The notes beneath the pieces are model-generated. The model worked only from the letters and a program-made list of their open reading frames with translations. It searched no databases and was not told where the DNA came from. A program made the translations under genes and the position numbers. A stretch of 64,000 nt of DNA from an uncultured bacterium (GTDB lineage Bacteria > Bdellovibrionota > JACOXK01 > 2-02-FULL-40-11). Positions 2,993 to 27,342 of this stretch are shown here, piece after piece. How positions within the stretch are numbered: the first letter of the stretch is position 1; the number at the start of each line of letters is the position of its first letter. Location of the stretch: assembly GCA_964392415.1 (NCBI GenBank), contig CAYMPL010000001.1, forward strand, positions 6,200 to 70,199, written 5' to 3'.

Positions 2993-3751
2993 TTATCTCC
3001 TCTTCCCAAAGATTCCTTCCCCGACTCTTACTTGCGTCGCCCCCTCTTCAATCGCAATTTTAAAATCATGTGTCATTCCCATTGAAAGCTCCCTCAGCGA
3101 AAGATTTGGGAATGCTTTCTGAGTTTCCAATAATAATTCCCTCATCTTCCTAAAATAAGGGCGTGATTTTTCGGGGTCTTTAAAATAGGGGGGGATGGCC
3201 ATGAGCCCCTGGATATCCAAATAGGTCATTCTGGGCGGAGATTGTTCGAGAATGTCATTCTGAGGCTGAGGCTTGAAAATGTCATTCTGAGGCTCGAAGA
3301 GCCGAAGAATCTCATTTAAAAATGGAATAAGATTTTTAGGAAAAAGCCCTGATTTTGTTGTTTCTTCGCCAATATTGATTTGAATCAGAACTGGCAGACG
3401 GCGATTTTTCTTTTGCAGCTCCTGTTGAAGCTTTGTGGATAACTTTAGGCTATCAAGCGTTTGAATTTCTGAAATGGTATCCGTCAAATATTTGACTTTG
3501 TTCGTCTGAAGGTGGCCAATAAAAATCCATTTTGCGGCATTTCCCAGAATTTCCCATTTTTTGAGGAATTCCTGGACATGGTTTTCACCGAGATAGCTGA
3601 TTCCCGCATCCATCGCCAATTTGATCTTTTCGATCGGTTGTAATTTGGAAACAGCAATCAGCCGGATATCTTGAGGATTTTTTCCGATTTTTTTCGCGGT
3701 TTCAGAGATAATTTGTCGGACAGAGGCGATATTTTCTTTTATATCATTCAC
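2993..3751 (-). CDS. yggS: YggS-family pyridoxal-phosphate homeostasis protein (alanine racemase-fold); carries an in-frame insertion of the dispersed repeat element
   Basis: N-terminus [10 protein letters not shown]...GENHVQE matches YggS/PLPHP; the internal [17 protein letters not shown] stretch is encoded by repeat copies at 3254-3314. Confidence 0.85.
3254..3314. repeat. Dispersed repeat family copy (double head + hairpin core + tail), in frame inside yggS
   Basis: GTCATTCTGAGGCTGAGGCTTGAAAATGTCATTCTGAGGCTCGAAGAGCCGAAGAATCTCA. Confidence 0.8.
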
Positions 3752-3936: not shown

Positions 3937-5175
3937 TTAAAATTGACAGCTGATATCATAATTCAAATTATCAAATGCTATTCCATCACCAGAAGAATTT
4001 GTAATTTCAATCTTGCGAACAGAATTTAGAGTGTTTTGAATATTTGTATTTTGTCCCGATCCATTCTGTGGGGCGATATTTATTTCTTCAAGTAAGCTAT
4101 TGTTTTTGTCGTAAAGACGCACAATGGCGTTGCTCTCTACATCGATGAGAGAAAACCTGACATTAGAAGCATCAGCTAAAAAATTTATAATTAAAGGGTC
4201 GTCTTGATTTATACCCTGATTATTTGCCCCAAGAGCAAATGGTTGAGAAACAGGTTTTGCATCGCCTGATTGGCCTGGCCATTGTTCATTGATTAGCAAA
4301 GGATCTCCACGAGGGGATGAAAAAACAACGCCCTGTTTTTCATACTTCATCGTAATTTTCTGCCCTAGGATATTTTCGGTATCATCAAAAAATATGTTTT
4401 GGCGACAGAGAGCGGACTGATATTCTTCTTCTGGTACCTCTGGTGCAGGAGGTAATGTACCAGCACGTTGCTGCTCCAAAAGAAGAACCACTCTTTCTAA
4501 TTTTGAGACGATTTTTTCAAGTTTATGAATGATTCGCTCTGATGCATTCTTTTCTGCTCTCCAGAGCCCCTTTTTCTTTCCCCTGGCCTCTTCTTGTAAA
4601 GCTAAAAATCGATCCCGATATTTTACATTGGGAGGAATTGTCATAATGGAGCCATACCCCTCTTCTAAAATTTTGGCGTTCACAAATGTGCCGTCTTCCA
4701 GGAAAACATATGCAAGCAATCTTCCATAGCGATCTCTTTGATCAACATCAAATTCAAGACGGACTCTTTTGCCTTCGAGAAGATTTTTTGTAAATTCATA
4801 TGCTTCTTGCCCCAGCTCTTGAATTATCCTGATATCTTGTCCAGTTCTTCTGGCATCTTCATATAATTTGGAACTCTGAGATATTTCAGGGGTATCAATA
4901 CCAATAAATCTTACCTTTTCTCCGTTGGAGAGAACTATGGTGTCACCATCAATGACTCTTTCAACCATAAAAAATCCTGTTTCTGAAGGCGAAAGAGATT
5001 GCGTTTCAGGAGATGGTGGCGTCTGAATTTGTGGTTTATGGCAATGTCTTTCGCCTGTTCGGCTATCCCTGTGACAGCCGTCTTTGTCCGTTCGGCCTGA
5101 ATGGCAAATGGCCTCATTATTCAGAAAAAAAATAAAAATAAAAGCTCCCATGATTTTCCCAATGATCGATTTCAT
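3937..5175 (-). CDS. Secreted protein with central thermonuclease (SNase/micrococcal-nuclease-like) domain, His/Cys-rich N-region and uncharacterized C-terminal domain
   Basis: Signal peptide MKSIIGKIMGAFIFIFFL; SNase motifs VIDGDTIVL...VRFIGIDTPE...YGRLLAYVF. Confidence 0.65.
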   Translation of the reverse strand: MKSIIGKIMGAFIFIFFLNNEAICHSGRTDKDGCHRDSRTGERHCHKPQIQTPPSPETQSLSPSETGFFMVERVIDGDTIVLSNGEKVRFIGIDTPEISQSSKLYEDARRTGQDIRIIQELGQEAYEFTKNLLEGKRVRLEFDVDQRDRYGRLLAYVFLEDGTFVNAKILEEGYGSIMTIPPNVKYRDRFLALQEEARGKKKGLWRAEKNASERIIHKLEKIVSKLERVVLLLEQQRAGTLPPAPEVPEEEYQSALCRQNIFFDDTENILGQKITMKYEKQGVVFSSPRGDPLLINEQWPGQSGDAKPVSQPFALGANNQGINQDDPLIINFLADASNVRFSLIDVESNAIVRLYDKNNSLLEEINIAPQNGSGQNTNIQNTLNSVRKIEITNSSGDGIAFDNLNYDISCQF

Positions 5176-9627: not shown

Positions 9628-11409
9628 GTGGGGAGAGTCACTCAAATCAAAGCGGCGATTCATTTAGCTATTTTTTCACTTCTGGGGGGATCCTTCGTCG
9701 CTTCGCTCCTCTGGATGACACCCTTGCTCCTCTGGATGACACCATTTGATGCGGCGGCTGACCCAAAATTTCCTTTTTTTCAACAGGCTTCTTTTTCACT
9801 CACCAGAGTCGAGCGGGACAAAACTGAAAACAGACTTTCGCGTATGACGCCTGAAGAAAAAATCGGTCAGCTTCTTATGGTAGGGATCAGAGGGAAGCGA
9901 CTCACCCCTGGAACCGAGCGGCTTATTAAAAAATTAAAACTGGGGGGTGTTATTTTTTACGCTCATAATATTGATGATCCGGTTCAGCTTCGCCAGTTTA
10001 CTTCCGCGATTCAGCATGTGGCATCCTTGGATCACAGGATTCCACTTTTTATATCGGTCGACCAGGAAGGGGGATCGGTTGCGCGGATTCGGAAAGGGGT
10101 TTACTCTTTTCCTCCGCCAATGGCGATTGGAGCCACAGGTTCGCTCCAGCTTTCGTATATGGTCGGCAAAATGATGGCGCTCGACCTCTCTGCGATGGGG
10201 ATTAACATGAATTTGGCCCCTGTTCTCGACGTCAATACGGAACAAGAAAATCAGCTGATCGGAATCCGGTCATTCGGGGGGGATCCTGAACTCGTGGCTC
10301 AAATGGGAATGTGGTACATTGAAGGACTTCAATCGCGGGGAGTTGTTGCAACTGCGAAACACTTTCCGGGGCATGGAAATACCGCGGTCGATTCTCATTA
10401 TGCGATTCCCGCTATTCAGACCGGGCTTTCTGATCTTGAAAAATTTCACCTTCTCCCTTTTAAAAAAGCGATGGAAAATGGTCTCGATGCCCTTATGACA
10501 GCCCATCTTTCGGTGCCAGCGATCGACCCTTCAGGTTTGCCAGCAACATTTTCCTACAATCTTCTGACCGAAGTGGTTCGTAAAAAAATGAACTATCAGG
10601 GGCTCATCGTGACAGATGATCTCGAGATGAAGTCGATTCGTAACAGATATGGAGTGGGGGAAGCGGCGCTCAAAGCCATTTTGGCAGGATCAGATGTCGT
10701 GATGGTTAGTTGGACGGATGAGAAAAAAACAGAGGTTTTTAACGCACTTCTAACTGCCTATCGGGAAGGGAAGCTGACAGAAGAGAGGCTGAACGAATCG
10801 GTTCGACGGATTCTTAAATTGAAATATCAGCGGGGTTTTTTTGATGCTGTTCGGGAGCCTGCATCCCTAAATCCAAAATGGCTGACCCATTCCGCGCACC
10901 AAAAGCTTCTTAGCCAAATTGCTGCGAAGGCGATAACGATGGTTTTCAACAAAGGGGTGCTCCCGTTAAAGGAAGAGGATCCTCGAAAGGTGCTTTTGGC
11001 GACCCCATTCAATCTTTTTTACGAGGAGCTTAAATTTTATCATGAGGATCTGAGTTCTTTAAAAATTCCAAATCGTCCTACCATTTCAGAAATTGAGACA
11101 ATTGTTTCAAACATTACTGAACTGAAAAATGAAATCGATCTGCTCATGATAGGCCTGACACACAGGTCACAACTTCCACTGGTTCAAAGGCTTTCCCAAA
11201 ATATAAAAAAACCGATTGTAGTTATTTCTTTTGAGTCCCCCTACCTCATTCATGAGATAAAGAAAATTTCAGAGATTTCTGCCTTCCTCTGCAGCTATGG
11301 CACCCAGCCGGAGCTTGTCCGCGCAACTGCTGAGTCCCTGGTCGGAATCATTCATCCCACAGGGAAAAGTCCCGTCTTGAGCATGGAAACGGCATCGATT
11401 AACAAATAA
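9628..11409 (+). CDS. nagZ: Beta-N-acetylhexosaminidase, glycoside hydrolase family 3 (NagZ-like) with signal peptide
   Basis: KIGQLLMVGI, ISVDQEGG, KHFPGHG, LIVTDDLEM GH3 motifs. Confidence 0.85.
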   Translation: MGRVTQIKAAIHLAIFSLLGGSFVASLLWMTPLLLWMTPFDAAADPKFPFFQQASFSLTRVERDKTENRLSRMTPEEKIGQLLMVGIRGKRLTPGTERLIKKLKLGGVIFYAHNIDDPVQLRQFTSAIQHVASLDHRIPLFISVDQEGGSVARIRKGVYSFPPPMAIGATGSLQLSYMVGKMMALDLSAMGINMNLAPVLDVNTEQENQLIGIRSFGGDPELVAQMGMWYIEGLQSRGVVATAKHFPGHGNTAVDSHYAIPAIQTGLSDLEKFHLLPFKKAMENGLDALMTAHLSVPAIDPSGLPATFSYNLLTEVVRKKMNYQGLIVTDDLEMKSIRNRYGVGEAALKAILAGSDVVMVSWTDEKKTEVFNALLTAYREGKLTEERLNESVRRILKLKYQRGFFDAVREPASLNPKWLTHSAHQKLLSQIAAKAITMVFNKGVLPLKEEDPRKVLLATPFNLFYEELKFYHEDLSSLKIPNRPTISEIETIVSNITELKNEIDLLMIGLTHRSQLPLVQRLSQNIKKPIVVISFESPYLIHEIKKISEISAFLCSYGTQPELVRATAESLVGIIHPTGKSPVLSMETASINK

Positions 11410-13131: not shown

Positions 13132-14136
13132 ATGGATGTCGTTATTTCAAATCATAGTCATTATCCGCGAGTTGGGGATCTGAAAGATCAACTCAAATTA
13201 AGGAAGGCATATCATCAATACGATCATAAAAAGATCGATCTCGAAAAATTAAAAAAGGTCGAAGAAGAGACGATTCGGGATATCATTAAAGAGCAGCAAA
13301 CCGCAAAGCTCGATATTGTGACCGATGGTCTTATCAGATGGAATGACCCTGTTTCTTATTTCATGAAGCGCCTTGAGGGGGTTGAAATTGGGGGGCTTCT
13401 CAGATTCTTTGATACCAATTTTTATTTTAGACAGCCGCAAATTATGGGAAAGCTCTCTCTTAAAGAGCCTTGTTTTAAAAAAGATCTTCTCTTTTTGAGA
13501 GCTGGGACAGATGCCGATATAAAGCTTGTGCTGACAGGGCCCTATACGCTGGCGCTCCTCTCAAACATAGCCACGCCGCATTATCAATCGGTTGAGGAAG
13601 TTTCCGAAGCGCTGACAGAGCTGCTCGTCGAAGAGTTCAAATCGATTAAAGAGATGGGGATCCCCTATATTCAAATTGAGGAGCCCGGCTATCTTTTAAC
13701 TCCGCCAGACTGGAAGTGGGCATCCTCGTTGATTAAGAAGTTGGCGGCCCATCAGGGGAATTCAAAGCTGATCCTTGCCACTTATTTTGGTGACGCCGCT
13801 CCTTATTATTCAAAGCTTGAGAATCTTCCCGTCGATATTTTGGGATTCGATACAACCTATTCGCCGGGACTTCTAGAAAGTCTTCGAAAGGAAGGGAGCC
13901 GAAAGGAAATTCAACTTGGGCTTCTGGATGGCCGGAATACGAAACTTGAAAGTCCGGATGAAGTTGTCGGAGTCCTTCATTCTCTTGAAAAAACTTGGAG
14001 GCGGCTGATTCTTACCACCTCTTGCGGGCTTGAGTATCTTTCGAGAGACAGGGCTTTTGACAAGCTCAATCTCTTACAGGAAATTAAATATGCGTACCAG
14101 GGTAAAAACCAAACATCTAAAATCAAAAAGGGATAG
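13132..14136 (+). CDS. Stand-alone homolog of the N-terminal domain of cobalamin-independent methionine synthase MetE
   Basis: Aligns by eye with E. coli MetE residues 1-340: HYPRVG/FPRVG, FDTNFYF/FNTNYHY, LTGPYT/LGPVT, IQIEEP/VQIDEP, LATYFGD/LTTYFEG, TTSCGL/ASSCSL. Confidence 0.75.
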   Translation: MDVVISNHSHYPRVGDLKDQLKLRKAYHQYDHKKIDLEKLKKVEEETIRDIIKEQQTAKLDIVTDGLIRWNDPVSYFMKRLEGVEIGGLLRFFDTNFYFRQPQIMGKLSLKEPCFKKDLLFLRAGTDADIKLVLTGPYTLALLSNIATPHYQSVEEVSEALTELLVEEFKSIKEMGIPYIQIEEPGYLLTPPDWKWASSLIKKLAAHQGNSKLILATYFGDAAPYYSKLENLPVDILGFDTTYSPGLLESLRKEGSRKEIQLGLLDGRNTKLESPDEVVGVLHSLEKTWRRLILTTSCGLEYLSRDRAFDKLNLLQEIKYAYQGKNQTSKIKKG

Positions 14137-14140
14137 AGGT

Positions 14141-15148
14141 ATGAGAACAGAAGAAAACAAATTAAAAAATTTAGGGATTCAATTACCCATTTTTCCATTG
14201 ACTTCGGTCGGGAGTTTCCCAAAATTCGACTATATCAAGAAAGGACGGAGCTGCTTTGAAAAAGGGGAGATTGGCGCAAATGATCTCCTGACTCTTGAAA
14301 AAAAGGCGACAGAGGAGTGGATTCAATTTCAGGAAGAAATTGGAATCGATATTCTGGTCGATGGTGAAATGTATCGGGGGGATATGGTTGCCTATTTTGC
14401 TGAAAAACTCCCAGGCTTTAAAGAAGGGGGTTTTGTTCGATCGTATGGAAATCGATTTTACAAAAAGCCGGTCATTTCAGAGGCTGTCGGATGGGAGAAG
14501 CCGCTCACAGTAGATTGGTGGAAATTTGCGCAATCTTTGACTCGCAAACCGGTAAAGGGGATGCTCACCGGTCCCTATACCATTATGGATTGGTCCTTTA
14601 ATGAACATTATAAGGACCGTGAAGCAGCAGCGCTTGCATTGGCTAAGGTGATCCGAAAGGAAGTGGAGGCATTGATTGATGCCGGGGCAAAGATTATTCA
14701 GGTCGATGAGCCTGCCTGTTCTGTGCGCCCCAAAGAACTTCCGTTGGTCGTGAGGACGATGGATATTGTGACAAGAGATCTCCCGGCCTATTTTGTAACA
14801 CACATCTGTTATGGCGATTTTGAGAAAATATATCCGGAGATGAATGAAATTCCAGTCGACAACTATGATCTTGAAATGTCGAACAGTGAAAACGATCTGC
14901 TTAATTGTTTCAGAAAGGTTCATATGCCAAAGGATCTCTCGGCAGGGATTGTAGATGTTCACACGCATCAAATTGAAGAGCATGCTCTTTTAATGAAGCG
15001 TTTGCGTGATATCTTGGAAGTGGTTTCCCCCTCTCAGCTCTGGGTCGATCCCGATTGTGGGCTTAAGACGCGGACGGTCGACGAGGCGAAAGAGAAATTG
15101 AAAGCAGTGGTAAAAGCAGTGAAGGCGTTGAGGGCCCAGTCATCCTGA
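14141..15148 (+). CDS. metE: Core methionine synthase (MetE C-terminal catalytic domain only, with zinc/homocysteine-binding motifs)
   Basis: VGSFPK, KPVKGMLTGPYTI (identical block to E. coli MetE), IQVDEPA, THICYGDF (His/Cys ligands), VDPDCGLKTR; RBS GAGGT before the ATG at 14141. Confidence 0.85.
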   Translation: MRTEENKLKNLGIQLPIFPLTSVGSFPKFDYIKKGRSCFEKGEIGANDLLTLEKKATEEWIQFQEEIGIDILVDGEMYRGDMVAYFAEKLPGFKEGGFVRSYGNRFYKKPVISEAVGWEKPLTVDWWKFAQSLTRKPVKGMLTGPYTIMDWSFNEHYKDREAAALALAKVIRKEVEALIDAGAKIIQVDEPACSVRPKELPLVVRTMDIVTRDLPAYFVTHICYGDFEKIYPEMNEIPVDNYDLEMSNSENDLLNCFRKVHMPKDLSAGIVDVHTHQIEEHALLMKRLRDILEVVSPSQLWVDPDCGLKTRTVDEAKEKLKAVVKAVKALRAQSS

Positions 15149-15170
15149 GGGCGAAGCCCGAAGGATCCCA
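15139..15170. repeat. Dispersed repeat family copy; its TGA is the stop codon of core-metE
   Basis: GTCATCCTGAGGGCGAAGCCCGAAGGATCCCA. Confidence 0.85.
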
Positions 15171-15217
15171 TCATACATTGACTTTTCCCATCAGATTTCC
15201 TATTCTTGAGTAAAGTT

Positions 15218-16606
15218 ATGTCCCCCTCTCTCAAGCGGCGTAGAGTCTACCTTATATTGTTCGCTGTCATTTTTATCTCCGTTGGATTCATATTGGGAAA
15301 TTTGTTTGTTGGCAGGGTTTCAGCATCTAAAACGGGGACTCAGTATGAAAAGATCGGGATTCTTCTCAAAGTCTTAAATTATGTTGAAAATAATTATGTC
15401 GAAGAGGTAAAAATTCAGGATCTTACCTACGGCGCTATCAACGGCATGCTTGCAACGCTCGATCCCCATACAAACTTTTTAACGCCTGAGTTGTTCAAGG
15501 AGATGAAAATTGATACGACAGGGCAGTTTGGCGGGATTGGAATTGAAATTACGGTCAAAGACGATATTCTGACCATCATCGCGCCGATCGAAGATACGCC
15601 GGCCTTTCAGGCAGGGCTCAAACCCAACGATAAAATTGTTAAAATTGAGGAAGATTTTACGGATAAAATGACGCTCATTGAGGCGGTCAGCAAAATGCGC
15701 GGAAAAAAAGGGGTGCCGGTCAACATCTATATCATGAGGGAGGGATTTAAGGAGCCTCAGAAATTCACCATTGTTCGCGATATTATCAAAGTCCGGTCTA
15801 TCAAGTCACAGCTTCTCGATTCAGACTATGGGTATATTAAGATCGTCAATTTTCAGGAGCGGACAGCGGATGATCTGAGGGGCGCCTTTAACAGACTGGA
15901 CGCGGACGCGAGAAAAAAGCAGGTGAAAGGAAAAAAAGAGGGGCTTAAAGGGCTTATTCTTGATTTAAGAAACAATCCGGGGGGGCTTTTGGATCAGGCG
16001 GTTCGTGTGTCGGATCTTTTTTTGGAAAAAGGGGTGATTGTATCTACGGCCGGACGTCACAAAGAGAATAAAGACATTCAATATGCCCATCAGGCGGGGA
16101 CGTTGAAAAATATGCCGATGATCGCTTTGGTGAATGGGAGTTCTGCCTCTGCGTCGGAAATTGTTGCGGGGGCGCTTCAGGATCATAGACGGGCTGTTGT
16201 GGTCGGGACAAAATCATTTGGGAAGGGATCGGTCCAGCAGGTCATTGAGTTGAATGATCAATCGGGTTTGAAATTAACCGTTGCCAAGTATTACACGCCG
16301 CAGGGTCGTTCGATTCAGGGATCTGGCATTGAACCGGATGTGGTCGTTGAGCAGATTGAGCCAGATGTTCTCAAGGCTGAGGAGAAAAAAAGAACCGATA
16401 AAAAACCATTCTGGCGGGAACAGGATTTGCCGAGGCATTTAAAAGAAGAAAAAGAAAAAGATGAAAAAGGCATTGAAGAATTTAAAGAGGCGCTAAAAGA
16501 TGAAGGTTTGAGATACGATTACCAGCTTCAGCAGGCCTATGGATATTTAAAATCGTACACCATTCTTGAGAATATCTACTCCGGGAAGAAAAAAGGGGCG
16601 CTTTGA
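15218..16606 (+). CDS. ctpA: Carboxyl-terminal processing protease, S41 family (CtpA/Prc-like) with PDZ domain
   Basis: GGIGIEI PDZ region, GLILDLRNNPGG, SASASEIVAGAL catalytic Ser block; TM/signal anchor at the N-terminus. Confidence 0.85.
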   Translation: MSPSLKRRRVYLILFAVIFISVGFILGNLFVGRVSASKTGTQYEKIGILLKVLNYVENNYVEEVKIQDLTYGAINGMLATLDPHTNFLTPELFKEMKIDTTGQFGGIGIEITVKDDILTIIAPIEDTPAFQAGLKPNDKIVKIEEDFTDKMTLIEAVSKMRGKKGVPVNIYIMREGFKEPQKFTIVRDIIKVRSIKSQLLDSDYGYIKIVNFQERTADDLRGAFNRLDADARKKQVKGKKEGLKGLILDLRNNPGGLLDQAVRVSDLFLEKGVIVSTAGRHKENKDIQYAHQAGTLKNMPMIALVNGSSASASEIVAGALQDHRRAVVVGTKSFGKGSVQQVIELNDQSGLKLTVAKYYTPQGRSIQGSGIEPDVVVEQIEPDVLKAEEKKRTDKKPFWREQDLPRHLKEEKEKDEKGIEEFKEALKDEGLRYDYQLQQAYGYLKSYTILENIYSGKKKGAL

Positions 16607-16607
16607 T

Positions 16608-16692
16608 GTCATCCTGAGGGCGAATGCCCGAAGGATCTCATTCGTAAGTGACGAGATTCTTCGCTCAGAATGACCGCTGCTCAGAATGACAA
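16608..16692. repeat. Dispersed repeat copy followed by inverted partial copies (composite palindrome) after ctpA
   Basis: GTCATCCTGAGGGCGAATGCCCGAAGGATCTCA ... GAGATTCTTCGCTCAGAATGAC ... GCTCAGAATGAC. Confidence 0.8.
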
Positions 16693-16693
16693 T

Positions 16694-17434
16694 TCATTCT
16701 TTTTTCAGGAAATGTTGATAGTACAGCAACGATGCCCCGACGACACCGCCGGGCAAAACAGAGAGATTGAGAATCGGTATTGCGAGCATGAGAGAGATCC
16801 CTGCTCCAAATCCCAGGCACGCGAATGGATGAGAGAGCATCACCTTCTTGAGTTCTTCAAAGCGGAGGTGTTCGACACCAAACGGGAAGTCTAGAAACTG
16901 GAATGAGAGTAAAAAAAGTGTGAGACATCCGCTAATAACAACTCCAATGACTGGAATAAGAAGAAAGAGAAGCGCAATCGCTTCAAGAAAAAGGATCAAG
17001 GCTATTTTTTTGAGCTGTGTTGAAAGAATTCTTTTGGCTTCGGAAACAACCTGACTGAATGAAAAGGGTTCTCTTTCAGACGCTCCGTAAAGGAGCTTTT
17101 TTGTTTTTTCTGCCATCCATTCATGAAAGGGGGCGGCAAGGAGGTTTCCCACGAGACAGACAAAAAAGGTGGTAAGAATGAGCATAACAATCAGGAACAA
17201 AGTTGCAAAAAGATAGTAGGGGATCAGCCAATACCAGGCATCCGGTTTAATAATCATAAGCGCCAAAAGATCATCAAAAGTGTAATAGAGCGTTGTCAGC
17301 GCTGAGATGAAAAGAACGATATTGATCATCCAGGGGACCAAAGCGAGGCGAAGAAGAGAGGCATGCATAAAAAGAAAGCGCAGACCGTAAAAGGGATACG
17401 AAAAGCCGGCTTGGAAATCACGAATCATTTTCAC
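16694..17434 (-). CDS. Polytopic membrane protein, EI24/CysZ-like (DUF540-like)
   Basis: Four to six predicted TM helices; loose resemblance to CysZ/EI24 only. Confidence 0.35.
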   Translation of the reverse strand: MKMIRDFQAGFSYPFYGLRFLFMHASLLRLALVPWMINIVLFISALTTLYYTFDDLLALMIIKPDAWYWLIPYYLFATLFLIVMLILTTFFVCLVGNLLAAPFHEWMAEKTKKLLYGASEREPFSFSQVVSEAKRILSTQLKKIALILFLEAIALLFLLIPVIGVVISGCLTLFLLSFQFLDFPFGVEHLRFEELKKVMLSHPFACLGFGAGISLMLAIPILNLSVLPGGVVGASLLYYQHFLKKE

Positions 17435-17462: not shown

Positions 17463-18581
17463 TCATTGAAAAAGGTGTTGGTTAATAGTATCTAGCCCCT
17501 TTATATCGTAGATGTCTTGGGCAAAAAAAGGGATTTCGTAAACTGGTACACCTGCGGTGGGCGCTGCTGTGGAGAGAGATTTTTTAAATTGTTCTGTTTC
17601 CATTCTTTCTCTTTTGGCAAGCTCTTCCCACTGCTCGAAGATTTCAAGTTTCACCCGCTCGTTCTTTGACATTTTTGGTTTCATGTTTTCCAGCGTTTTT
17701 CTTTGGGACGAATAGGCATCCGCTGTCAAGGGAATGTCAGCTAAAATCCGGTTGATGATGATCCCTCCAAACGGAAGTTTCATTCCAGTAAGCCTTTCAT
17801 AAAAACGAAAGGCTTCTTCAAGCATTCTCCTTTCAGGGACAGTTGCAAGTAAAAAAGCGGTTTCATGACTCCCCAAAATTTCTCTGGCTTTTAGTGTTCG
17901 TTCCCGAAAACCGGTATAGAGCGTTTGTAAATTGATAAAAAATTCTGACAATTCATAAAAGAGCTGAAGGCCTGTGAATCGCTCGATGATTTTAAAAACA
18001 AAATAAGAGCCTGCCGACAAAAACTGAATGCTCAATTTTCCTGCTAGAAAATAGGGTTTGAGAAACCATTTTAGAATATTTTCATCGAGAAAATTGGAAA
18101 GTCTTTCCGGGGCTTCCAGAAAATTGAGCGCGTGTTTTGCTGGAGGGGTGTCGATGACGATGAAGTCATAATGGTTTTCCTTCCAAAGCTCGTAGAGTTT
18201 TTCAAGGGCCATATAGTCCCGTGTTCCCGCAAGCATCGTTGAGAGATACTGATAGATCCGGTTTCCCAGAATTTTATCAATAATTTCCTGGGACGGCGCG
18301 TACTGGCGTATCAGTTGATCCAGTGTCTCTTTGGTATCGAGCATCATCGCCCAAAGTTTCACATCCTTACTGAGAGGAATTGCCTTTGGGCGATGGTCGA
18401 ACTGATCAAACCCGAGGGTTTGCGCGAGCCTTTTTGCTGGATCGATCGTCAAGACGAGTGTTTTTTTCCCGGACTTTGCCGCATGTACGGCAATAGCGGC
18501 GGAAAGGGTCGTTTTTCCCACCCCTCCGCTCCCCGAAACGATAACCACTTTTTTGGTTTTTAGAATATCAGCTAAGCCCAT
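17463..18581 (-). CDS. ArsA/GET3-family P-loop ATPase (second of a tandem pair)
   Basis: SGSGGVGKTT deviant Walker A, DTPP switch region. Confidence 0.8.
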   Translation of the reverse strand: MGLADILKTKKVVIVSGSGGVGKTTLSAAIAVHAAKSGKKTLVLTIDPAKRLAQTLGFDQFDHRPKAIPLSKDVKLWAMMLDTKETLDQLIRQYAPSQEIIDKILGNRIYQYLSTMLAGTRDYMALEKLYELWKENHYDFIVIDTPPAKHALNFLEAPERLSNFLDENILKWFLKPYFLAGKLSIQFLSAGSYFVFKIIERFTGLQLFYELSEFFINLQTLYTGFRERTLKAREILGSHETAFLLATVPERRMLEEAFRFYERLTGMKLPFGGIIINRILADIPLTADAYSSQRKTLENMKPKMSKNERVKLEIFEQWEELAKRERMETEQFKKSLSTAAPTAGVPVYEIPFFAQDIYDIKGLDTINQHLFQ

Positions 18582-19501
18582 TGTTTTTCGATTTCCTTGC
18601 CGAGTTTTTTAAGAGCGGAGAGATCAGGCGCTTCCTTTAAAATCCAGGGGATCTTAAAGCTTTTTTTTGACAACTCTTTCTCAAGGCGGTCTTCATACGA
18701 TTGCTGGATCTTTTGTCTTGTTTGATAATGAAGGAGGGTCTGTTCTATCTTTTTAAGGAGTGAGCCCATGTCATTCTGAGAGCCCCAAAGTCCAATAGTT
18801 CGAAGAATCCCATTATTTTCAAAAGCCTCCAGTTTTTTATTTAAAAACAGTTCTCCCATCGGAAGTCTTAGTTTTTTGATTTCATTAAAAAGCTCGAGGG
18901 TTTCCTGAACAGGGAGTTCTTCAGGAATAGTAACCAGATGAATCGCTGTCTCTTTTTTTTCGGTGAGCATCGAATAGATTTTTTGGGATTGCTCCGCCAG
19001 GGGGCCTTTTTGAGTCAAATCGATAAAGACCTTTGGAATTTTAAAAAGATAAAGAGCGTGGCCTGTTGCGGGGGCGTCAACAATCAAAATATCCCAGCGG
19101 GGTTTCTTTCCGGAACGCTCATCGCTCAGGTAATACATTTTTCCGATCAACGCCATTTCTTCCACCCCTGGGGCCGCTTTCACAAAAAAATGGAAAATCT
19201 TATTTTCAAAGATGAGATCATATATTTTTTCGATCTTTATCTGACGGATAATAAATTCTCTAAGAGAGGACAAAGGATCGATCAAAACCCCATCAATGTT
19301 TGGGGCAAGCGGTTTGGGGGTCATCGTCCCTTTTTCAGTGTTAAAAAGGCACGATACTGGGCTTTCAGGATCGAGATCGATCAGAAGTACTTTTTTCCCC
19401 CGGCTTGCTGCGATGAGAGCGAAAAGAGACGCAATCGTGGTTTTCCCGACCCCCCCCTTTCCGGTGAAAAAATGAAGTCTCTGCTGAAATAGCGATGTCA
19501 T
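18572..19501 (-). CDS. ArsA/GET3-family P-loop ATPase (first of a tandem pair)
   Basis: TGKGGVGKTT, DAPATGHAL; 10-nt overlap with the downstream paralog. Confidence 0.8.
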   Translation of the reverse strand: MTSLFQQRLHFFTGKGGVGKTTIASLFALIAASRGKKVLLIDLDPESPVSCLFNTEKGTMTPKPLAPNIDGVLIDPLSSLREFIIRQIKIEKIYDLIFENKIFHFFVKAAPGVEEMALIGKMYYLSDERSGKKPRWDILIVDAPATGHALYLFKIPKVFIDLTQKGPLAEQSQKIYSMLTEKKETAIHLVTIPEELPVQETLELFNEIKKLRLPMGELFLNKKLEAFENNGILRTIGLWGSQNDMGSLLKKIEQTLLHYQTRQKIQQSYEDRLEKELSKKSFKIPWILKEAPDLSALKKLGKEIEKQWA

Positions 19502-20334: not shown

Positions 20335-20336
20335 AT

Positions 20337-20388
20337 GTCACCCTGAAGCCCACTATGTCATCCTGAAGCCCGCAGGGCTGAAGGATCT
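20337..20388. repeat. Dispersed repeat copy (partial head + full unit) abutting the hydrolase gene start, in the divergent intergenic region
   Basis: GTCACCCTGAAGCCCACTAT GTCATCCTGAAGCCCGCAGGGCTGAAGGATCT. Confidence 0.8.
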
Positions 20389-20462
20389 AATTATCAATAA
20401 TCTAGCTGCTTGGGTCAATAAAATATTGCATCCGTGGGAAGCAGTTTGCTACTATTATAAGC

Positions 20463-23025: not shown

Positions 23026-24882
23026 TTGTTGTCAAATCGATGCATACAATTCATTCGGAGACATAAGGCCAAATTCGGGTTTCTTCTCACCCTGTTTTTT
23101 GTCTACGGCGCGCTCGTCCATTACGAACTGGTTTTGAAAATAGGACCTCCTTCGTTTGCCACCCAAAAACCGTTGCCTGCCCTGAATGACGAGGGGACTT
23201 TGATTGTGAAGCCCCGCGCGAAATTCGGTCCGCCAAAAGAAGATGTCAATGATGCGAAGGCGCTCTATCATTTCTCTCTGGGAACGATTGCAAGTTATGA
23301 AAATCAGTATCATGAAGCTATTTCACAGTTTAAAAAGGCGCTCGAGTATGATCCCAAATCCGCCTATATTCATCTGCGCGTCGCCGAGGAATATTTAAAG
23401 CTTTCTGAATTTGAATCGGCAAAATCTCATGTGAATACCGCGCTCAAGCTCGACCCTAAATTTGCGGATGCGCATCTCCTGAAGGGGGGATTGGATGCCG
23501 CTGAAAAAAAATATGAAGAAGCAGCCGCCCATTATCAGAAAGTTATTGAGCTCGACCCATCGCGGGAACAGGCTTATATCTTTCTTGCTACCATTTATGC
23601 CGAACAGGGGAAATACATGGAAGGGATTAAACTTCTCAATAAACTTCTCCATATTGAACCTCAGTCTTATTGGGCTTATTACTATTTGGGACGAATTTAT
23701 ATTGAGCAGGGGAAACCGAATGAAGCCGTTCGCGCTTACAAACAATCGCTCAAAATAAATCCTTCCTTTCATCTGGCGGCCCTTGCCCTGGGCATTCATT
23801 ATGAACTGAGGGATCAGGTGGAGAGGGCCATCCATGTCTATTTGGAGGCGATTGACCGCGGCGATACGAGCCCAAGGCTGCTTAAGCGGACCGTCCAGCT
23901 CCTATTGGCAAAACAGGATTATGTGCGGGTTCTCAAGCTTCTCGAAGAACTTAAATCCCAGGATCCGGGGGATTTAAACAATCGTGTCCGGATCGGCCTT
24001 ATTTATTATGAAATGAAAGATTATGAGCGGGCGCAGCATGAATTTAAAGATCTCATTAAAGAGTATCCGGAATCAGACAGGCTTCAATATTATCTTTCGT
24101 CTGTATACGAAAAATTGGGCAAATATGACGAAGCTATTCAGATTTTTGGAAAAATAAAATATGGGTCCGAATTTTATATTGATGCGCTCAATCGACATGC
24201 GTTTCTTCTCGTCGAAAGAAATCAGTTCGAAAAAGCAATTTCTCTTGTTGAAAAAGCGATTGAACAAAAACCGGGGAGCGGCCAGCTTTATGAAGTGCTC
24301 GCCTCCATTTATGAAAAGAAAGAAAAATTTGATGAAGCTCTTAACGTTTTGAATAAAGCAAAAGAAAAATTTCCCCCGCTGAAAAAAGATGAACGCCTCA
24401 TCTACTATACAGGGACGATTTACGACAAGATGGGCAATTTCGAAAAATCGATTGCAGTGATGCAGGAGATTTTAAAGCTCAACCCAAACCATGCGGATGC
24501 CTTGAATTTTGTCGGCTACAGCTATTCGATTAAAGGGATACGTCTCGATGAGGCGGAGGCGATGATTAAGAAAGCGCTCTCTTTAAAACCAGGCGAAGGG
24601 TATATCGAAGATAGTCTGGGGTGGATCTATTTCATCAAAGGGGATTATAAACGGGCAAAAAAATATCTTGAAAAAGCAGTTATTCTAAAAGCGGATGAGC
24701 CTGTCATTTTGGACCATCTTGCCGACCTTTATATAAAATTGGATGATATTAAAAAAGCGCAAAGCCTCTACCAAAAAGCTTTGGAACTCAAACCTGACAA
24801 AAAAACAACCGAGCAGATCCAAAGAAAACTGAACGTCATCAACGAAAAAGAAAAAAGCAAACGCCTTCCTGCCGCCCATTAA
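23026..24882 (+). CDS. Tetratricopeptide-repeat protein
   Basis: More than 12 TPR units (AxxYxxxGxxY...A pattern) along the whole protein. Confidence 0.8.
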   Translation: MLSNRCIQFIRRHKAKFGFLLTLFFVYGALVHYELVLKIGPPSFATQKPLPALNDEGTLIVKPRAKFGPPKEDVNDAKALYHFSLGTIASYENQYHEAISQFKKALEYDPKSAYIHLRVAEEYLKLSEFESAKSHVNTALKLDPKFADAHLLKGGLDAAEKKYEEAAAHYQKVIELDPSREQAYIFLATIYAEQGKYMEGIKLLNKLLHIEPQSYWAYYYLGRIYIEQGKPNEAVRAYKQSLKINPSFHLAALALGIHYELRDQVERAIHVYLEAIDRGDTSPRLLKRTVQLLLAKQDYVRVLKLLEELKSQDPGDLNNRVRIGLIYYEMKDYERAQHEFKDLIKEYPESDRLQYYLSSVYEKLGKYDEAIQIFGKIKYGSEFYIDALNRHAFLLVERNQFEKAISLVEKAIEQKPGSGQLYEVLASIYEKKEKFDEALNVLNKAKEKFPPLKKDERLIYYTGTIYDKMGNFEKSIAVMQEILKLNPNHADALNFVGYSYSIKGIRLDEAEAMIKKALSLKPGEGYIEDSLGWIYFIKGDYKRAKKYLEKAVILKADEPVILDHLADLYIKLDDIKKAQSLYQKALELKPDKKTTEQIQRKLNVINEKEKSKRLPAAH

Positions 24883-24885: not shown

Positions 24886-26067
24886 TCATTTCTTCTTCAA
24901 AAAGGCTTCAATATTTTCTTGGGTGACGATCACAGGTGGAAGCGCCTTGGGAAAGACTTCTTTAAATTCTTCATATGCCTGAAAATGCCTTTGTTGTGGA
25001 GCATTCCAGCTTACTTGATAAGGGACAATCTGGTTATCTTTTAAGACAATGAAATCGATTTCTCCTTTTCCGCGCCAGTAATAAACGTGTCGATATTCTT
25101 TTCTGAGATGATGAAAAACGACTGTCTCCAATTCTTTTCCTTTGTCTTTCCCCGTTTTGGTGATAATCGCCTTTCTCAATCCCAAATCGATGGGGTAATA
25201 TTTTTTATTTCTAGCAGCGCTTTGCTTTTCAGAAAATGTAAAATAGGGACATGGCAGGAGAAGATAAGCGGCAATCGCAGCATCGAGATATGATTTCACC
25301 GTATCAGGTGTAACATCGATAATTTTAGCTAAACTTCTTTGGCTGACCTCCGACCCTGTTGCCTCAAAAACAGCTTTGATAAGCTGAGTGAGCGTCAAAG
25401 TTGATCTGACCGATATGTGCCGTCTGACATCTTTTTCAATAATATCGGTAAAATATTCCCTCAATAGTTCTTGCGGTTTTTCAAACACTAAGGGCCTGGG
25501 AAAACCGCCTTCATCGAGATAAGATTCAAAAGAAGTTTCTCCTTTAAGCGACTTAAATTCGTGATAGTCAAATGGGAACAATTCAAGCGTGATATGGCGC
25601 CCTGTGAGCGCTGTTGATAATTCACCCGAAAGAAGCGAAGCGTTAGAGCCAGTGATCACATAGATTTCATTGGATGGGCGTTCCACCTTTCTGTGAAGCC
25701 ATTTTTCCCACCCTTTCACATTTTGAATTTCGTCCAGAAAAAAATAATAGACATCATGTTCTGATATTTTTTTGGATAGAGAAACGATTTGATCGACCAG
25801 GTCGGGATTGAGATCCGCACTCAGTCTCGGATCTTCAAAATTTACAAAGGTACAGGAAGGCCGGGGAAGTTTTTTGTGGGCCATGATTTGAGCCAAAAGA
25901 GTCGACTTTCCGCATCTTCGAACCCCTTGAATAACGAGGACAATGTCGGGATTGAGCGGAATGTCGCCTGACAAAATTTTACGTGGAATGGATGGAGGTG
26001 GCTCTTTGTCCCAATAACTCCACTCTCTAATGATCTGTTTGAGTTTAGAATTATCAAGCATAATCAA
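24886..26067 (-). CDS. AAA+ ATPase of the AAA_14/DUF4143 family
   Basis: VIQGVRRCGKSTLL Walker A, DEIQ Walker B, C-terminal DUF4143-like region. Confidence 0.8.
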   Translation of the reverse strand: MIMLDNSKLKQIIREWSYWDKEPPPSIPRKILSGDIPLNPDIVLVIQGVRRCGKSTLLAQIMAHKKLPRPSCTFVNFEDPRLSADLNPDLVDQIVSLSKKISEHDVYYFFLDEIQNVKGWEKWLHRKVERPSNEIYVITGSNASLLSGELSTALTGRHITLELFPFDYHEFKSLKGETSFESYLDEGGFPRPLVFEKPQELLREYFTDIIEKDVRRHISVRSTLTLTQLIKAVFEATGSEVSQRSLAKIIDVTPDTVKSYLDAAIAAYLLLPCPYFTFSEKQSAARNKKYYPIDLGLRKAIITKTGKDKGKELETVVFHHLRKEYRHVYYWRGKGEIDFIVLKDNQIVPYQVSWNAPQQRHFQAYEEFKEVFPKALPPVIVTQENIEAFLKKK

Positions 26068-26197: not shown

Positions 26198-27253
26198 ATG
26201 TTAAGCAATATGAAATATAAACCTTTGATTTTTTTGACACTATTTTTATCTCTGAGCATGAATGAGACTTGGGCGGATGACCGCTATTTGAGTCCAGACA
26301 AGAAGATGGAGCTGATTCATGGGGGGATAGTTTATCTCGCAAAAAACCAAAAAATGGATGGAAGGTGGGAGCATCCGCAATATCCTACGGCTGTGACAGC
26401 ACTCTCTGCACTATCGATTTTGGGGATGGGGCACACACCGCACCGCGGGCCTTATCAAGAGACACTGACAAAGGCCGTAGATCTTTTACTTTCCGCTCAA
26501 AGAGAAAAGGATGGTTTGATTGCGATTCCGGGAGAGCAACGGTCGATGTATGGACATGGGTTTTCAACCCTCTTTTTAAGCCAGGTCTTTGGAATGAGTG
26601 GGGGGATGACGCCAAATTCTCGAATTAAAAATGCGCTCCAAAATGCTGTCGATCTTATTGTAAAGAGTCAGAATGATAAAGGGGGCTGGTATTACGAGCC
26701 CTTTTCATTCGACGATGAAGGGACGATCACGATTGTTCAAATTCAGGCGCTTCGGGGGTGCAGAGATGTGGGCATAGTTGTTCCCAAAGAGACGATTGAA
26801 AAGGCTTTGGATTATGTCAAAAAATCTCAATATGAGAACGGCGGAATCGCTTATGGCGTGGGACCGTCAGGAAATGCTACGCCGGCGTTGACCTCAGCAG
26901 GGATGGCGGTTTTATTTAATGCGGGGGAATATGATGTTACGGAGGTTCATGCCAAAGGTTTCCGGTATTTAGATGAGCAATTTAAAGAATTCTTAACAGG
27001 GTCAGAAAAAAAAGAGGTGGGAGGTGGTCACTTTCTTTACACTCATTTTTACGCGTCACAAGTTTATAAATTGCGCGGGGGATTTTATAGGGAAGATTAT
27101 TTTCGGGTTATTGAGAAGGTCTTAGAAGAACAAATGAAAGGCACAGGTGGAGAGAGATTTTGGGATATTGAAGAAGGCCCCTTTTATTCAACCGCAATGG
27201 CGCTTTTAATTTTGGAGATGGAACTTGAATACCTTCCGATATTTACGGATTAA
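26198..27253 (+). CDS. Secreted prenyltransferase/squalene-oxidase-repeat (PFTB, terpenoid-cyclase fold) protein
   Basis: Signal peptide; four QxxxGGW-type repeats (QKMDGRWEH, QREKDGL, QNDKGGWYY, QYENGGIAY). Confidence 0.7.
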   Translation: MLSNMKYKPLIFLTLFLSLSMNETWADDRYLSPDKKMELIHGGIVYLAKNQKMDGRWEHPQYPTAVTALSALSILGMGHTPHRGPYQETLTKAVDLLLSAQREKDGLIAIPGEQRSMYGHGFSTLFLSQVFGMSGGMTPNSRIKNALQNAVDLIVKSQNDKGGWYYEPFSFDDEGTITIVQIQALRGCRDVGIVVPKETIEKALDYVKKSQYENGGIAYGVGPSGNATPALTSAGMAVLFNAGEYDVTEVHAKGFRYLDEQFKEFLTGSEKKEVGGGHFLYTHFYASQVYKLRGGFYREDYFRVIEKVLEEQMKGTGGERFWDIEEGPFYSTAMALLILEMELEYLPIFTD

Positions 27254-27255
27254 CC

Positions 27256-27342
27256 GTCATTCCGAGGGACAAAGTCCCGAGGAATCTCTGTCATTGCGAG
27301 CGGGGCGTGTGTCATTCCGAGCACGGAGTGCGAGGAATCTCA
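27256..27342. repeat. Three tandem repeat-family units between the PFTB protein gene and the FGE-domain gene
   Basis: GTCATTCCGAGGGACAAAGTCCCGAGGAATCTC / TGTCATTGCGAGCGGGGCGTGT / GTCATTCCGAGCACGGAGTGCGAGGAATCTCA. Confidence 0.85.

Follow-up and report, generated by a model that had tools for sequence, protein, structure and literature searches.

Repeats of the GTAG REP/REPIN type are tagged hairpins of high copy number that also occur as inverted doublets and whose action presumably takes place on single-stranded DNA (ssDNA); GTAG REPs flank the gene of the Y1 transposase RAYT (TnpA-REP). RPE-1, the element of Ogata et al. (2000), is said to be palindromic selfish DNA found in frame in many unrelated genes, at positions compatible with the fold and function of the protein. 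MITEs such as the Correia elements of Neisseria extend or interrupt ORFs. The same holds for the QMITEs of Coxiella (PMC5896051). The closest described relatives of the repeat considered here are the CGTC/TGTC-tagged REPs, a superfamily that includes RPE-4 and RPE-6 of Rickettsia conorii, dRS3 of Neisseria and CGTC-1 of Coxiella, and whose tag is CGTC, 'changed to TGTC', and also CCTC (PMC3733652). Di Nocera, De Gregorio & Rocco (2013) describe palindromes of 20–40 nt with an unpaired (C/T)GTC at one end, a stem that starts with complementary A-T and T-A pairs (ATTCC.../...GGAAT) and a short unpaired tail; copies hug ORF 3' ends, form dimers, lie in some cases inside genes where they are read in several frames, and have no associated transposase (PMC3733652).

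The window analysed here, a 64-kb stretch of DNA from the MAG of a groundwater bacterium, contains a repeat that shares the palindromic form, the tag, the start of the stem, the placement at ORF ends, the dimers and the in-gene copies of this description. Its consensus is a palindrome of about 30 nt, TGTC-ATYCY-GA-[stem-GNA loop-stem]-GA-RGRAT-CTC, in which an unpaired (T/C)GTC tag leads into an outer stem of 5 bp (ATYCY/RGRAT), followed by an internal loop of tandem G.A/A.G and an inner stem that varies from 2 to 5 bp; a GNA triloop (predominantly GAA, GCA or GTA) closes the inner stem, and an unpaired CTC tail forms the far end. Repeats were counted by pattern matching with regular expressions and shuffles: TCATYCYGA-N8-26-GARGRATC gives 13 full copies in the window against 0.01 by chance, and the 11-nt head GTCATYCYGAR gives 16 matches against 0.35 expected. 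Every copy has AT YCY ... RGR AT at its stem ends. Other genomes yielded 122 distinct copies; in 118–120 of them the arm positions free to vary, two in number, are Watson-Crick paired (Fisher p about 1e-28 to 1e-31), and two or more nested pairs form the inner stem in 81% of copies as against 13% of shuffles. Conservation ends at T(-1) and at the tail (142 copies); of the 142, 114 have T and 20 have C just 5' of GTC, which was itself set by the search pattern. The tail is CT(C/G/A), with C at +1 weakly preferred (62/142). Tags in the window are mostly TGTC, with CGTC at cysC and at 27255.

As general background, sheared G.A pairs and GNA loops are specially stable; for the present element, nearest-neighbour DNA folding energies of the tagged and the complementary strand were indistinguishable. 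In Rfam only tRNA-Phe and tRNA-Sec reached the gathering score, and no family was found at any copy at E <= 5; a hammerhead-like reading of CUGAG...CGAAG was dropped, since neither a CUGAUGA box nor A14 is present and no model matched. Full-text literature queries with DNA 11-mers of the element and with its encoded peptides returned unrelated primers or nothing.

The likeness to the CGTC/TGTC REPs extends to the encoded peptides: the published VIPAKAGI, SFPRKRES and CHSRESGNP compare with VIPSAKHEES, SFRARSARNL and RHSD..EES here, and DSRFRGND and ..GMT with ..PQNDI and ..LWMT (PMC3733652). By its text descriptions, however, CGTC-1 to -4 have a continuous 8–9 bp stem, a 4–5 nt loop and a CCA tail, whereas the present element has the 5-bp outer stem, tandem G.A, 2–5 bp inner stem, mostly GNA triloop and CTC tail given above; because its stem is interrupted and its loop a triloop, it is none of these four, although it has the superfamily-level features (PMC3733652). 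The published host range is five phyla, mostly Alphaproteobacteria, and head-to-tail dimers are called rare (PMC3733652); here the record titles of the MAGs that the search pattern matched span over 15 phyla or candidate divisions, and tandem duplications of the half unit (head) are prominent. The other systems are more distant. The element resembles GTAG REPs and REPINs in its short tagged hairpins, inverted doublets and high copy number, but its tag is (T/C)GTC and no RAYT lies near any copy in the window or at 120 loci. Like RPE-1 it is palindromic and in frame in unrelated protein genes, but RPE-1 measures 100–150 bp and is confined to Rickettsia, as opposed to a unit of about 30 nt that makes inserts of 15–22 residues in a groundwater MAG labelled Deltaproteobacteria. 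As a non-autonomous repeat able to add peptides or start and stop codons it recalls the MITEs, but these are 100–400 bp long, end in inverted repeats and duplicate their target sites; the present element does neither, and its conservation ends at the 30-nt unit.

The original prediction was that this repeat is inserted in frame in two conserved genes, yggS and cysC. The features concerned are:

2993..3751, minus strand: yggS (PLP homeostasis protein), intact ORF of 252 aa, Pfam Ala_racemase_N
3225..3253, plus strand: unit 1 of the yggS array, degenerate, GTCATTCTGGGCGGAGATTGTTCGAGAAT, recognised from its arms ATTCT...AGAAT and by comparison with the empty allele; encodes 10 residues
3254..3280, plus strand: unit 2 in yggS, truncated or degenerate, GTCATTCTGAGGCTGAGGCTTGAAAAT
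3281..3313, plus strand: unit 3 in yggS, canonical and full, GTCATTCTGAG-GCTC-GAA-GAGC-CGAAGAATCTC; antisense reading, 12 residues
YggS residues 146–172 (approximate): the insertion; the alignment to PDB 1W8G breaks at residues 137/173
38519..39109, plus strand: cysC (APS kinase, Pfam APS_kinase), 196 aa, ATGA-coupled to cysN
38533..38577, plus strand: 45-nt insertion block in cysC, encoding residues 5–19; filled/empty relative to the related loci L005, L006 and L007
38537–38576, plus strand: element proper in cysC, CGTCATTCCGACCCAGAGCGCAGCGAAGGGGAGGAATCTC, CGTC tag, inner stem degenerate; residues 6–19

Both gene identities are right, as Pfam and PDB alignments show. What had been taken for a double repeat in yggS (ATGTCATTCTGAGGCT..ATGTCATTCTGAGGCTCGAAGAGCCGAAGAATCTC, 3252–3313 on the plus strand) is indeed crossed by the minus-strand ORF without a stop, but the array really consists of three abutting units, which add 66 nt (22 aa). 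The loop is 22 aa shorter in the closest YggS orthologs, P0002 and P0003 (90–91% identical), and also in P0004 and P0005; the KSG..GLM spacing is 22 residues, as in the closest YggS, in 57 of 66 anchored orthologs, and at this place E. coli YggS has 11 residues to the 35 of the window protein. The AF2 model of the window protein has a pLDDT of 88, falling below 50 at residues 155–173, and places the insert between a predicted helix (138–150) and strand (178–184) of an otherwise confident barrel; on this model the insert is a disordered loop joining helix to strand. In CysC, the element occupies residues 6–19 as foreseen, ahead of VLWFTG, the strand that comes next, and of the P-loop GLSGAGKT (both within residues 24–36). 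The five closest orthologs read MTKN(E/K)SG.VLWF, to which the window protein adds 45 nt (15 aa), and PDB APS kinases align to it only from residue 18–21 onwards; to judge from these alignments, the insert position is a variable N-terminal tail. Since both stretches are missing from the closest orthologs, about 90% identical, they are true insertions. Both inserts, the only ones sized against empty sites, are multiples of 3, while the free elements (28–34 nt) show no preference for such lengths, which indicates that frame-preserving composites survive and bears out the proposed filter. Intact ORFs and the predicted fold suggest that the decorated proteins still function. The further claim that the sequence is maintained at the nucleotide level stands for the family, whose arms and stems covary, but not for every copy. 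Unit 3 of yggS folds as DNA at -8.1 kcal/mol (z = -3.1); in cysC the inner stem is lost and the fold equals that of shuffles (z = +0.2), and the copy in an ArsA-family gene is likewise eroded.

That copy is one of several others that overlap genes:

9687..9741, minus strand: full element plus extra half unit in the GH3 glycosidase ORF 9628..11409; reads GGSFVASLLWMT PLLLWMT
15138..15169, plus strand: full element over the end of the MetE-like ORF 14030..15148; the CTGA of the element is the stop codon
18769..18811, plus strand: copy in a gene for an ArsA-family ATPase (minus strand, 18572..19501); reads GILRTIGLWGSQNDM, in a variable linker
27255..27341, plus strand: full element, GTCATTGCGAG head variant and second full element at the start of the gene of an FGE-sulfatase-domain protein
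27581..27612, plus strand: full element inside the FGE-sulfatase-domain ORF; DVIPSAKHEES, third forward frame

The GH3 copy lies in the hydrophobic core of the N-terminal signal-peptide region. Its ortholog in the related locus L211 keeps the frame through indels of -3 and -6 nt and lacks the extra half unit, which therefore arose later than the full copy. The ArsA copy has intact arms around 20 inner nt that are not palindromic, and the orthologous copy in the relative L210 is canonical. GTG 27309, within the second full element at 27255..27341, is the likely start of the FGE-sulfatase-domain protein; from this putative start the element encodes MSFRARSARNL, the charged n-region of the signal peptide. 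A metagenome scan for relatives of this protein matched only the C-terminal domain, at <=57% identity. The tolerance of several frames and strands that had been proposed thus reaches further than three: the element is read in five of the six reading frames, the remaining one having a stop. In line with a filter by selection, in-gene loci number only 5–6 of 12 although the window is 87% coding (p = 0.0003–0.002).

The intergenic copies are:

16607..16691, no single strand: inverted doublet and duplicated head, together filling the spacer of the convergent ORFs 15206..16606 (466 aa) and 16694..17434 (246 aa)
20336..20389, plus strand: truncated unit and full element in the spacer that separates prs from a divergent alpha/beta-hydrolase gene; L210 and L211 empty
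31911..31959, plus strand: truncated unit plus short full element, exactly between the stops of the convergent ORFs 30934..31908 and 31958..32467
47690..47721, plus strand: full element in a convergent spacer, missing at the syntenic L005 site
59334..59402, no single strand: inverted doublet with A7 and T7 flanks, one long hairpin of -24.8 kcal/mol (z = -6)

ORFs 15206..16606 and 16694..17434 are syntenic with the S41 peptidase and EI24 genes of L211, where the corresponding spacer measures 14 nt. The ORFs around 31911 have as their L211 counterparts an ABC ATPase and a response regulator; this site is empty in L211 (TAGGGTTA) and filled in L210. Altogether, empty sites were found in orthologs about 85–91% identical for yggS, cysC, 47690, 31911, 16607 and 20336; reciprocally, L211 has a doublet where the window site has none, and 24 kb of one relative genome (L004 and L005) contain zero copies. 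The ORFs flanking each copy are intact and syntenic with those of relatives on both sides. Sites occupied in one genome but vacant in close relatives show recent turnover, and such turnover in at least one lineage argues against regarding CGTC-type REPs as relics 'going toward extinction'.

With the family-membership features, the status of the stretches as insertions, their multiple-of-three lengths, their location in a loop and a tail, and turnover all established, the element is very probably a REP-type repeat of the CGTC/TGTC-tagged superfamily, that is, selfish non-coding DNA whose in-gene copies are tolerated survivors. Such DNA would gain and lose sites within the lineage, and its copies would pile up where they do little harm, a few bases from stop codons in very short spacers or at tolerant positions in genes. 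The survivors in yggS and cysC would be those with a length that is a multiple of three, an open frame and a peptide suited to the site: hydrophilic frames in the surface loop and N-terminal tail, and similarly a hydrophobic frame in the core of one signal peptide and an arginine-rich one in the n-region of another.

It is possible, but rather unlikely, that the element serves mainly as a signal in RNA or DNA, whether by stabilising mRNA 3' ends, terminating transcription or binding a protein, and that selection keeps it at gene ends, the in-gene copies being incidental spill-over. A stop codon lies within about 15 nt of six of the seven intergenic loci, several copies exactly filling convergent spacers, and Di Nocera et al. 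read copies near ORF 3' ends as pointing to transcription and to a function in RNA (PMC3733652). The strong A7/T7-flanked hairpin of the 59334–59402 doublet and the compensatory changes that keep stems paired point the same way. Against this, a simple terminator scan called none of the window elements, which have no T tail, and Rfam offers no match. In-gene copies have no consistent RNA orientation, since cysC and FGE carry the element in sense relative to the mRNA, whereas it is antisense in yggS, ArsA and GH3; and a needed signal is hard to reconcile with sites filled and empty between genomes about 85–90% identical and of the same gene order.

Local spread without transposition, by hairpin-induced replication slippage or template switching combined with exchange among strains and among copies through gene conversion or homologous recombination, is similarly unlikely. 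Tandem duplicates of the tagged half stand beside a full unit at six window loci (yggS, GH3, 16653–16691, 20336, 27290 and 31911), the GH3 half unit being the later arrival; a Dehalococcoidia locus has 29 head units with a period of 25–26 nt, and a Helicobacter NuoG-like protein a run of QND units. The empty yggS site, GTATTTAAT..GATTATTTCT, bears a loose likeness to the ends of the element, and the flank in yggS has a recombinant look: in the 30 nt adjoining the insert, the window is like P0006 and unlike the closer P0002. As three lineages (the window, P0006 and P0010) have differing versions of the element at one nucleotide position of yggS, an old allele spread via recombination may fit as well as repeated insertion. 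Slippage, however, enlarges an existing copy and does not account for first arrivals, such as those at cysC codon 5 or in the 3-nt gap between two stops, and the conservation of 20-nt arms from phylum to phylum calls for a sequence-specific agent or for spread by horizontal transfer.

That the stretches are native, selected protein segments, for instance a YggS regulatory loop, with only secondary nucleotide likeness, is very improbable. The YggS orthologs P0006, P0009 and P0010 do have PQNDI/SQND-like segments in the same loop, but these are the same DNA element with other inner stems; the stretches are absent from the closest orthologs and from all solved structures, and unrelated proteins use five frames of the element, which is mostly intergenic and in YggS forms a loop predicted to be disordered. 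Repeat-induced chimeric joins are a known hazard of MAG assembly and binning, but an artefact is barely credible given an independent 2.5-kb ENA contig identical across yggS and its insert, a CysC protein cluster of six members from three sources, and the intact, syntenic ORFs around every copy.

How the selfish repeat moves is a separate matter. No transposase or recurrent gene stands beside it among the window ORFs scanned, neighbour-gene enrichment at 120 loci of other genomes gave no recurrent family (largest cluster, 10 loci), and thus no element-encoded or neighbouring mobilising enzyme was found in these sets; nor is a target-site duplication or common target motif visible at the filled/empty junctions, so that transposition is only a candidate mechanism. 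IS608 and ISDra2 use the lagging-strand template (PMC6006769). Tentatively, and with rather low confidence, the element may be mobilised in trans as an ssDNA hairpin on that template. The tagged strand is the G-rich strand at nine of ten non-doublet loci whatever the gene orientation (p = 0.02), a bias that comes from a single 64-kb window and is inseparable from co-orientation with the majority of genes. In 8-kb loci of other genomes, GC skew gives a weaker trend, 64:47 with elements masked and 64:48 unmasked, reaching 38:19 where the absolute skew is at least 0.04. It is improbable that the GA-bulged, GNA-looped TGTC hairpin is an active, transposase-orphan element of most bacterial phyla, moved and grown through replication-fork ssDNA by a host enzyme and routinely donating coding material. 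If it were, ssDNA movement would explain both why the tagged strand lies on the template of the lagging strand and why the tagged half forms 'stutter' arrays, the element would be a donor of start codons, signal-peptide n- and h-regions and surface loops, and the filled and empty sites of Hainich groundwater relatives would make movement of a CGTC-type REP directly testable.

Since the superfamily was already known inside genes (PMC3733652), its in-gene habit is not new; the lineage and the filled/empty comparisons are. New here are the filled/empty turnover, the spread over more than 15 phyla or candidate divisions, the G-rich strand preference and the tandem tagged halves. The empty sites supply before-and-after cases at nucleotide resolution in which a tiny palindrome adds peptides to housekeeping enzymes without destroying them, and show the positions and reading frames that selection lets through. 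The host range found here suggests a distribution much wider than the five phyla from which the repeat class had been reported, and polymorphic sites, strand bias and half-unit arrays are leads toward the mobilising activity. For annotation, the element accounts for unusual extensions at the N-terminus, for short ORFs that are spurious and for outliers in length among the otherwise conserved proteins of MAGs; in other phyla, the proteins that carry it include PheT, a sigma-54 regulator, the NuoG-like protein and Fe-ADH.

The repeat in yggS and cysC had been predicted to be an in-frame insertion. On the plus strand, ATGTCATTCTGAGGCT is present twice at 3252-3313, with the second occurrence completed to the palindrome GTCATTCTGAG-GCTC-GAA-GAGC-CGAAGAATCTC, and the yggS insert is an array of three abutting units (3225-3253, 3254-3280 and 3281-3313). 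ORF 2993..3751 (minus strand), whose product is a PLP protein of the YggS family (Pfam Ala_racemase_N; E. coli YggS 1W8G, E = 6e-33), stays open across the repeat and reads it in frame, as predicted. In its closest orthologs, P0002 and P0003 (90-91% identity across the aligned residues) as well as P0004 and P0005, this stretch is 22 residues shorter; the empty site in DNA reads TTTTTAAAAGAAATAATCCCATTAAATACC, the window being 66 nt longer. Likewise, the KSG-GLM motif spacing is 22 residues in 57 of 66 anchorable orthologs versus 46 in the window, and at the same place the window protein has 35 residues versus 11 in E. coli YggS. An AlphaFold2 model of the window protein, built on the ortholog alignment, has a mean pLDDT of 88 with the sole exception of residues 155-173 (<50), between helix 138-150 and strand 178-184, so that the insert region is modelled as a helix-to-strand loop. 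In TIM barrels such loops are on the face opposite the PLP site. Two further orthologs, P0006 (76% identical) and P0010 (56%), carry other half-plus-full versions of the element, and the tail of each borders on (A/C)TTTAAAAA, just as the window tail does; the 30 nt adjoining the window insert match P0006 (CTTATTCCA) and differ from P0002 (CTCACCCCC). Judged from these sequences, recombination may have spread an old yggS allele, or insertion at this site may have happened more than once.

In cysC (38519..39109, plus strand; APS_kinase, E = 1e-58; ATGA overlap with cysN), CGTCATTCCGACCCAGAGCGCAGCGAAGGGGAGGAATCTC at 38537-38576 encodes residues 6-19, shortly before the next strand and the P-loop, in agreement with the original prediction. 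The five closest orthologs (73-88% identical) begin MTKN(E/K)SG.VLWF, and the empty site, ATGACAAAAAACGA followed directly by AAGTGGCCATGTTCTTTGG, was found in three contigs; the window is 45 nt longer. This copy has additional internal bases and folds no better than shuffles (z = +0.2). Since all solved APS kinases align from query residue 18-21 onward and none earlier, the insert is located in the variable N-terminal tail. Alignment thus identifies both stretches as insertions that the closest YggS and CysC orthologs lack, and both measured lengths are divisible by 3. Free units have lengths of 28-34 nt, and multiples of 3 are not favoured among them (30 or 33 nt in 32 of 122). The earlier observation and the core of its interpretation are upheld. 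The analysis shows a tagged REP-type hairpin that is dispensable at any given site and selection-filtered in genes.

The unit folds into an outer stem of 5 bp (ATYCY/RGRAT), an internal loop of 2x2 GA/GA, an inner stem of 2-5 bp and a triloop; no Rfam family matches it. A scan of 185,579 species genomes with GTCATYCYGAG-N7-13-CGARGRATCT gave at least 120 loci, against a chance expectation of about 30 matches over the entire collection. Among the matches listed, 118-120 of 122 distinct sequences have Watson-Crick pairs at the two Y/R positions of the arms (p ~1e-28 to 1e-31), two or more nested inner pairs occur in 81% of distinct copies versus 13% of shuffles, loops are mainly GAA, GCA or GTA, and a frequent variant has a second tandem-GA layer (GAGC-GNA-GCGA). 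Because features left free by the search pattern stay paired, the hairpin is real and constrained, and because conservation stops at T(-1) and the tail, the 30-nt unit is the whole element. By record title, the matches listed include MAGs of Chloroflexota, Acidobacteriota, Omnitrophota, Parcubacteria-type candidate phyla, Firmicutes, Bacteroidota, Gemmatimonadota, Planctomycetota, Armatimonadota and Cyanobacteria-related groups, and all major proteobacterial classes, including Rickettsiales and Helicobacter. Verified intragenic copies come from a Rickettsiales MAG (B5 domain of PheT), a Bacteroidales MAG (linker between lid and HTH in a sigma-54 response regulator), a Helicobacter sp. (a NuoG-like protein in which QND units follow one another) and an alphaproteobacterial MAG (a protein of the Fe-ADH family).

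In the window, TCATYCYGA-N8-26-GARGRATC has 13 matches (0.01 expected) and the 11-nt head, the tag-side part of the element, 16 (0.35 expected), so that the repeat is no chance occurrence; there are twelve element loci. In-gene loci (5-6 of 12) are fewer than expected from the 87% coding share (p = 0.0003-0.002), and intergenic copies are about 15 nt or less from stop codons, some exactly filling convergent spacers.

Copies in or at the ends of other genes
9687-9741, antisense: GH3 glycosidase N-terminus, GGSFVASLLWMT-PLLLWMT, signal-peptide hydrophobic core
15138-15169: end of MetE-like ORF, whose stop codon is the element CTGA
18769-18811, antisense: ArsA-family ATPase, GILRTIGLWGSQNDM in variable linker
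27310-27341: FGE-sulfatase-domain protein, first copy, MSFRARSARNL-LISLISIFLFSSSVVSHA from the putative start GTG 27309
27581-27612: same protein, second copy, translated DVIPSAKHEES

Reading frames of the element
Forward, SFR..: used in window
Forward, VIP..: used in window
Forward, (R/C)HS..: used in window
Reverse, ..QND: used in window
Reverse, ..(W/R)MT: used in window
Reverse, GAA-TGA-C: closed by a stop within the conserved head

With five of six frames in use across the window genes, the proposal that several frames and strands are tolerated holds. Frame chemistry suits location: loops and tails have acidic or polar frames, the signal-peptide core a hydrophobic one and the n-region an arginine-rich one. 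GTG 27309 would be the only plausible start of the FGE protein upstream of the hydrophobic core, and besides this start, the element copy appears to supply the arginine-rich signal-peptide n-region, MSFRARSARNL (27309-27390). In the region of L211, a contig of the relative GCA_964371555.1, orthologous to the GH3 extension, the frame is kept despite -3 and -6 nt indels, and the extension is therefore likely coding; the tag reverse complement, ATGAC, makes in-frame ATGs available in the GH3 leader (9716, 9737). The ArsA orthologs P0248 (73% identical) and P0246 have element-like peptides in other orientations in the same linker (SHSERRGSPRSEES; ISPFARDD a few residues earlier), which would make this linker a repeated landing or tolerance site. 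A lineage-specific 4.3-kb block (24886-29102) comprises ORF 24886..26067 (minus strand), a prenyltransferase/SQHop-cyclase-like ORF (26198..27253) and the FGE-sulfatase-domain ORF, with four element units at its internal gene junction and beyond it. It is flanked by a 618-aa ORF (23026..24882) and a 227-aa ORF (29204..29887), whose presumed counterparts in L211 and in the related Logan contig L210, genes for a TPR protein and for a 227-aa protein, lie side by side.

Turnover was followed by comparison with three syntenic GCA_964371555.1 contigs (L004, L005 and L211; 44 kb; ~85-89% protein identity) and with L210.

Element sites in the window and its relatives
yggS: window filled; GCA_964371555.1 empty
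cysC: window filled; GCA_964371555.1 empty
47690: window filled; GCA_964371555.1 empty
31911: window filled, ~47 nt between two stop codons; GCA_964371555.1 empty (TAGGGTTA); L210 filled
16607 doublet (two inverted units): window filled; GCA_964371555.1 empty, 14-nt spacer
20336: window filled; GCA_964371555.1 and L210 empty
GH3 5' copy: window and GCA_964371555.1 filled
MetE-like gene/peptidase spacer: window one copy; GCA_964371555.1 doublet
ArsA: window filled, degenerate; GCA_964371555.1 no copy detected; L210 filled, canonical
Doublet upstream of GH3: window empty; GCA_964371555.1 filled

Sites have therefore been gained or lost within 10-15% protein divergence. The ArsA copy of L210 has the canonical inner stem GCGC-GAA-GCGC, whereas that of the window has intact arms around a non-palindromic centre of 20 nt, which indicates that in-gene copies drift in 3-nt steps.

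The element may move in the form of ssDNA. On the tagged strand alone, sheared G.A pairs and a GNA triloop can form (cf. d(GCGAAGC)-type minihairpins). At 9 of the 10 window loci that are not doublets, the G-rich top strand carries the tag, regardless of gene strand (p = 0.02); window GC skew is +0.08, and by standard reasoning this strand is presumably the lagging-strand template. Among the matches listed from other genomes the trend is weaker (38:19 at |skew| >= 0.04; 69:43 when the majority coding strand is the reference). The lagging-strand template is used by IS608 and ISDra2 (PMC6006769). A simple transposon model is disfavoured: neither target duplication nor a common target motif was found at the compared filled/empty sites, nor a neighbouring enzyme among the window ORFs scanned and 120 listed loci elsewhere. 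At six window loci a full unit has a tandem duplicate of its tagged half on the tag side, and comparison with L211 places the GH3 half-unit duplication later than the full copy. On Dehalococcoidia chromosome OZ253489.1 (L083:1-1750), a 1.7-kb non-coding stretch holds 29 tandem head half units (CCCCCTCGTTGTCATTCTGGGACAC; period 25-26 nt) and, among them, 7 full elements of identical sequence; all copies point the same way. In an uncultured Helicobacter sp. (CASEHV010000011.1), the NuoG-like protein and a neighbouring ORF have long ..QND../..RND.. runs, each unit being a reverse-read element head, which suggests that half-unit arrays can be translated.

CGTC-tagged REPs were defined by Di Nocera et al. 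2013 (PMC3733652), whose descriptive text gives them a CGTC tag with TGTC as a variant, a stem whose first bases are complementary AT, a short unpaired tail, copies adjoining ORF 3' ends, intragenic copies in known proteins (tRNA synthetases included) and 'no dedicated transposase', and counts R. conorii RPE-4/RPE-6 and Neisseria dRS3 as members. The peptides it lists (VIPAKAGI, SFPRKRES, CHSRESGNP, DSRFRGND and ..GMT) back-translate to TGTCATTCCCGCGAAAGCGGGAATCC, which has the tag and arm ends in common with the window element. Set against its text descriptions of four CGTC families, the window element differs in its interrupted stem, GNA triloop and CTC tail, and the matches to its pattern suggest a much wider host range than the five phyla reported there. 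What the window shows is a further case of a phenomenon already on record, that of intragenic CGTC-type REPs and RPEs. The additions made here (filled and empty sites paired at nucleotide level, the match of frame to location, a host range that seems to be very wide, strand bias and head-stutter arrays) bear on how 'orphan' REPs move.

Elsewhere in the window, the last 45 nt of tRNA-Phe (3855-3929) are exactly repeated 2.9 kb downstream (3887-3931 and 6787-6831), which looks like an att-type duplication by a small integrated element; between the two copies lie genes for a secreted SNase-like protein (3937..5175) and for a zinc-ribbon protein, along with ORFs that have no Pfam hit, and no integrase was found. 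A sub-threshold Rfam match to Rickettsia sRNA47 at 16121-16237 (minus strand; 28.9 bits versus a gathering score of 60, E = 0.0014), within the 466-aa ORF 15206..16606, is probably due to chance. Two to three direct repeats of ~100 nt, 82-90% identical, at 53753-53935 suggest that the product of ORF 52919..53992 is internally repetitive. Finally, a tRNA-Sec gene at 22900-22999 (minus strand; Rfam 71.5 bits, ARAGORN anticodon TCA) would imply selenoprotein synthesis in the host organism.
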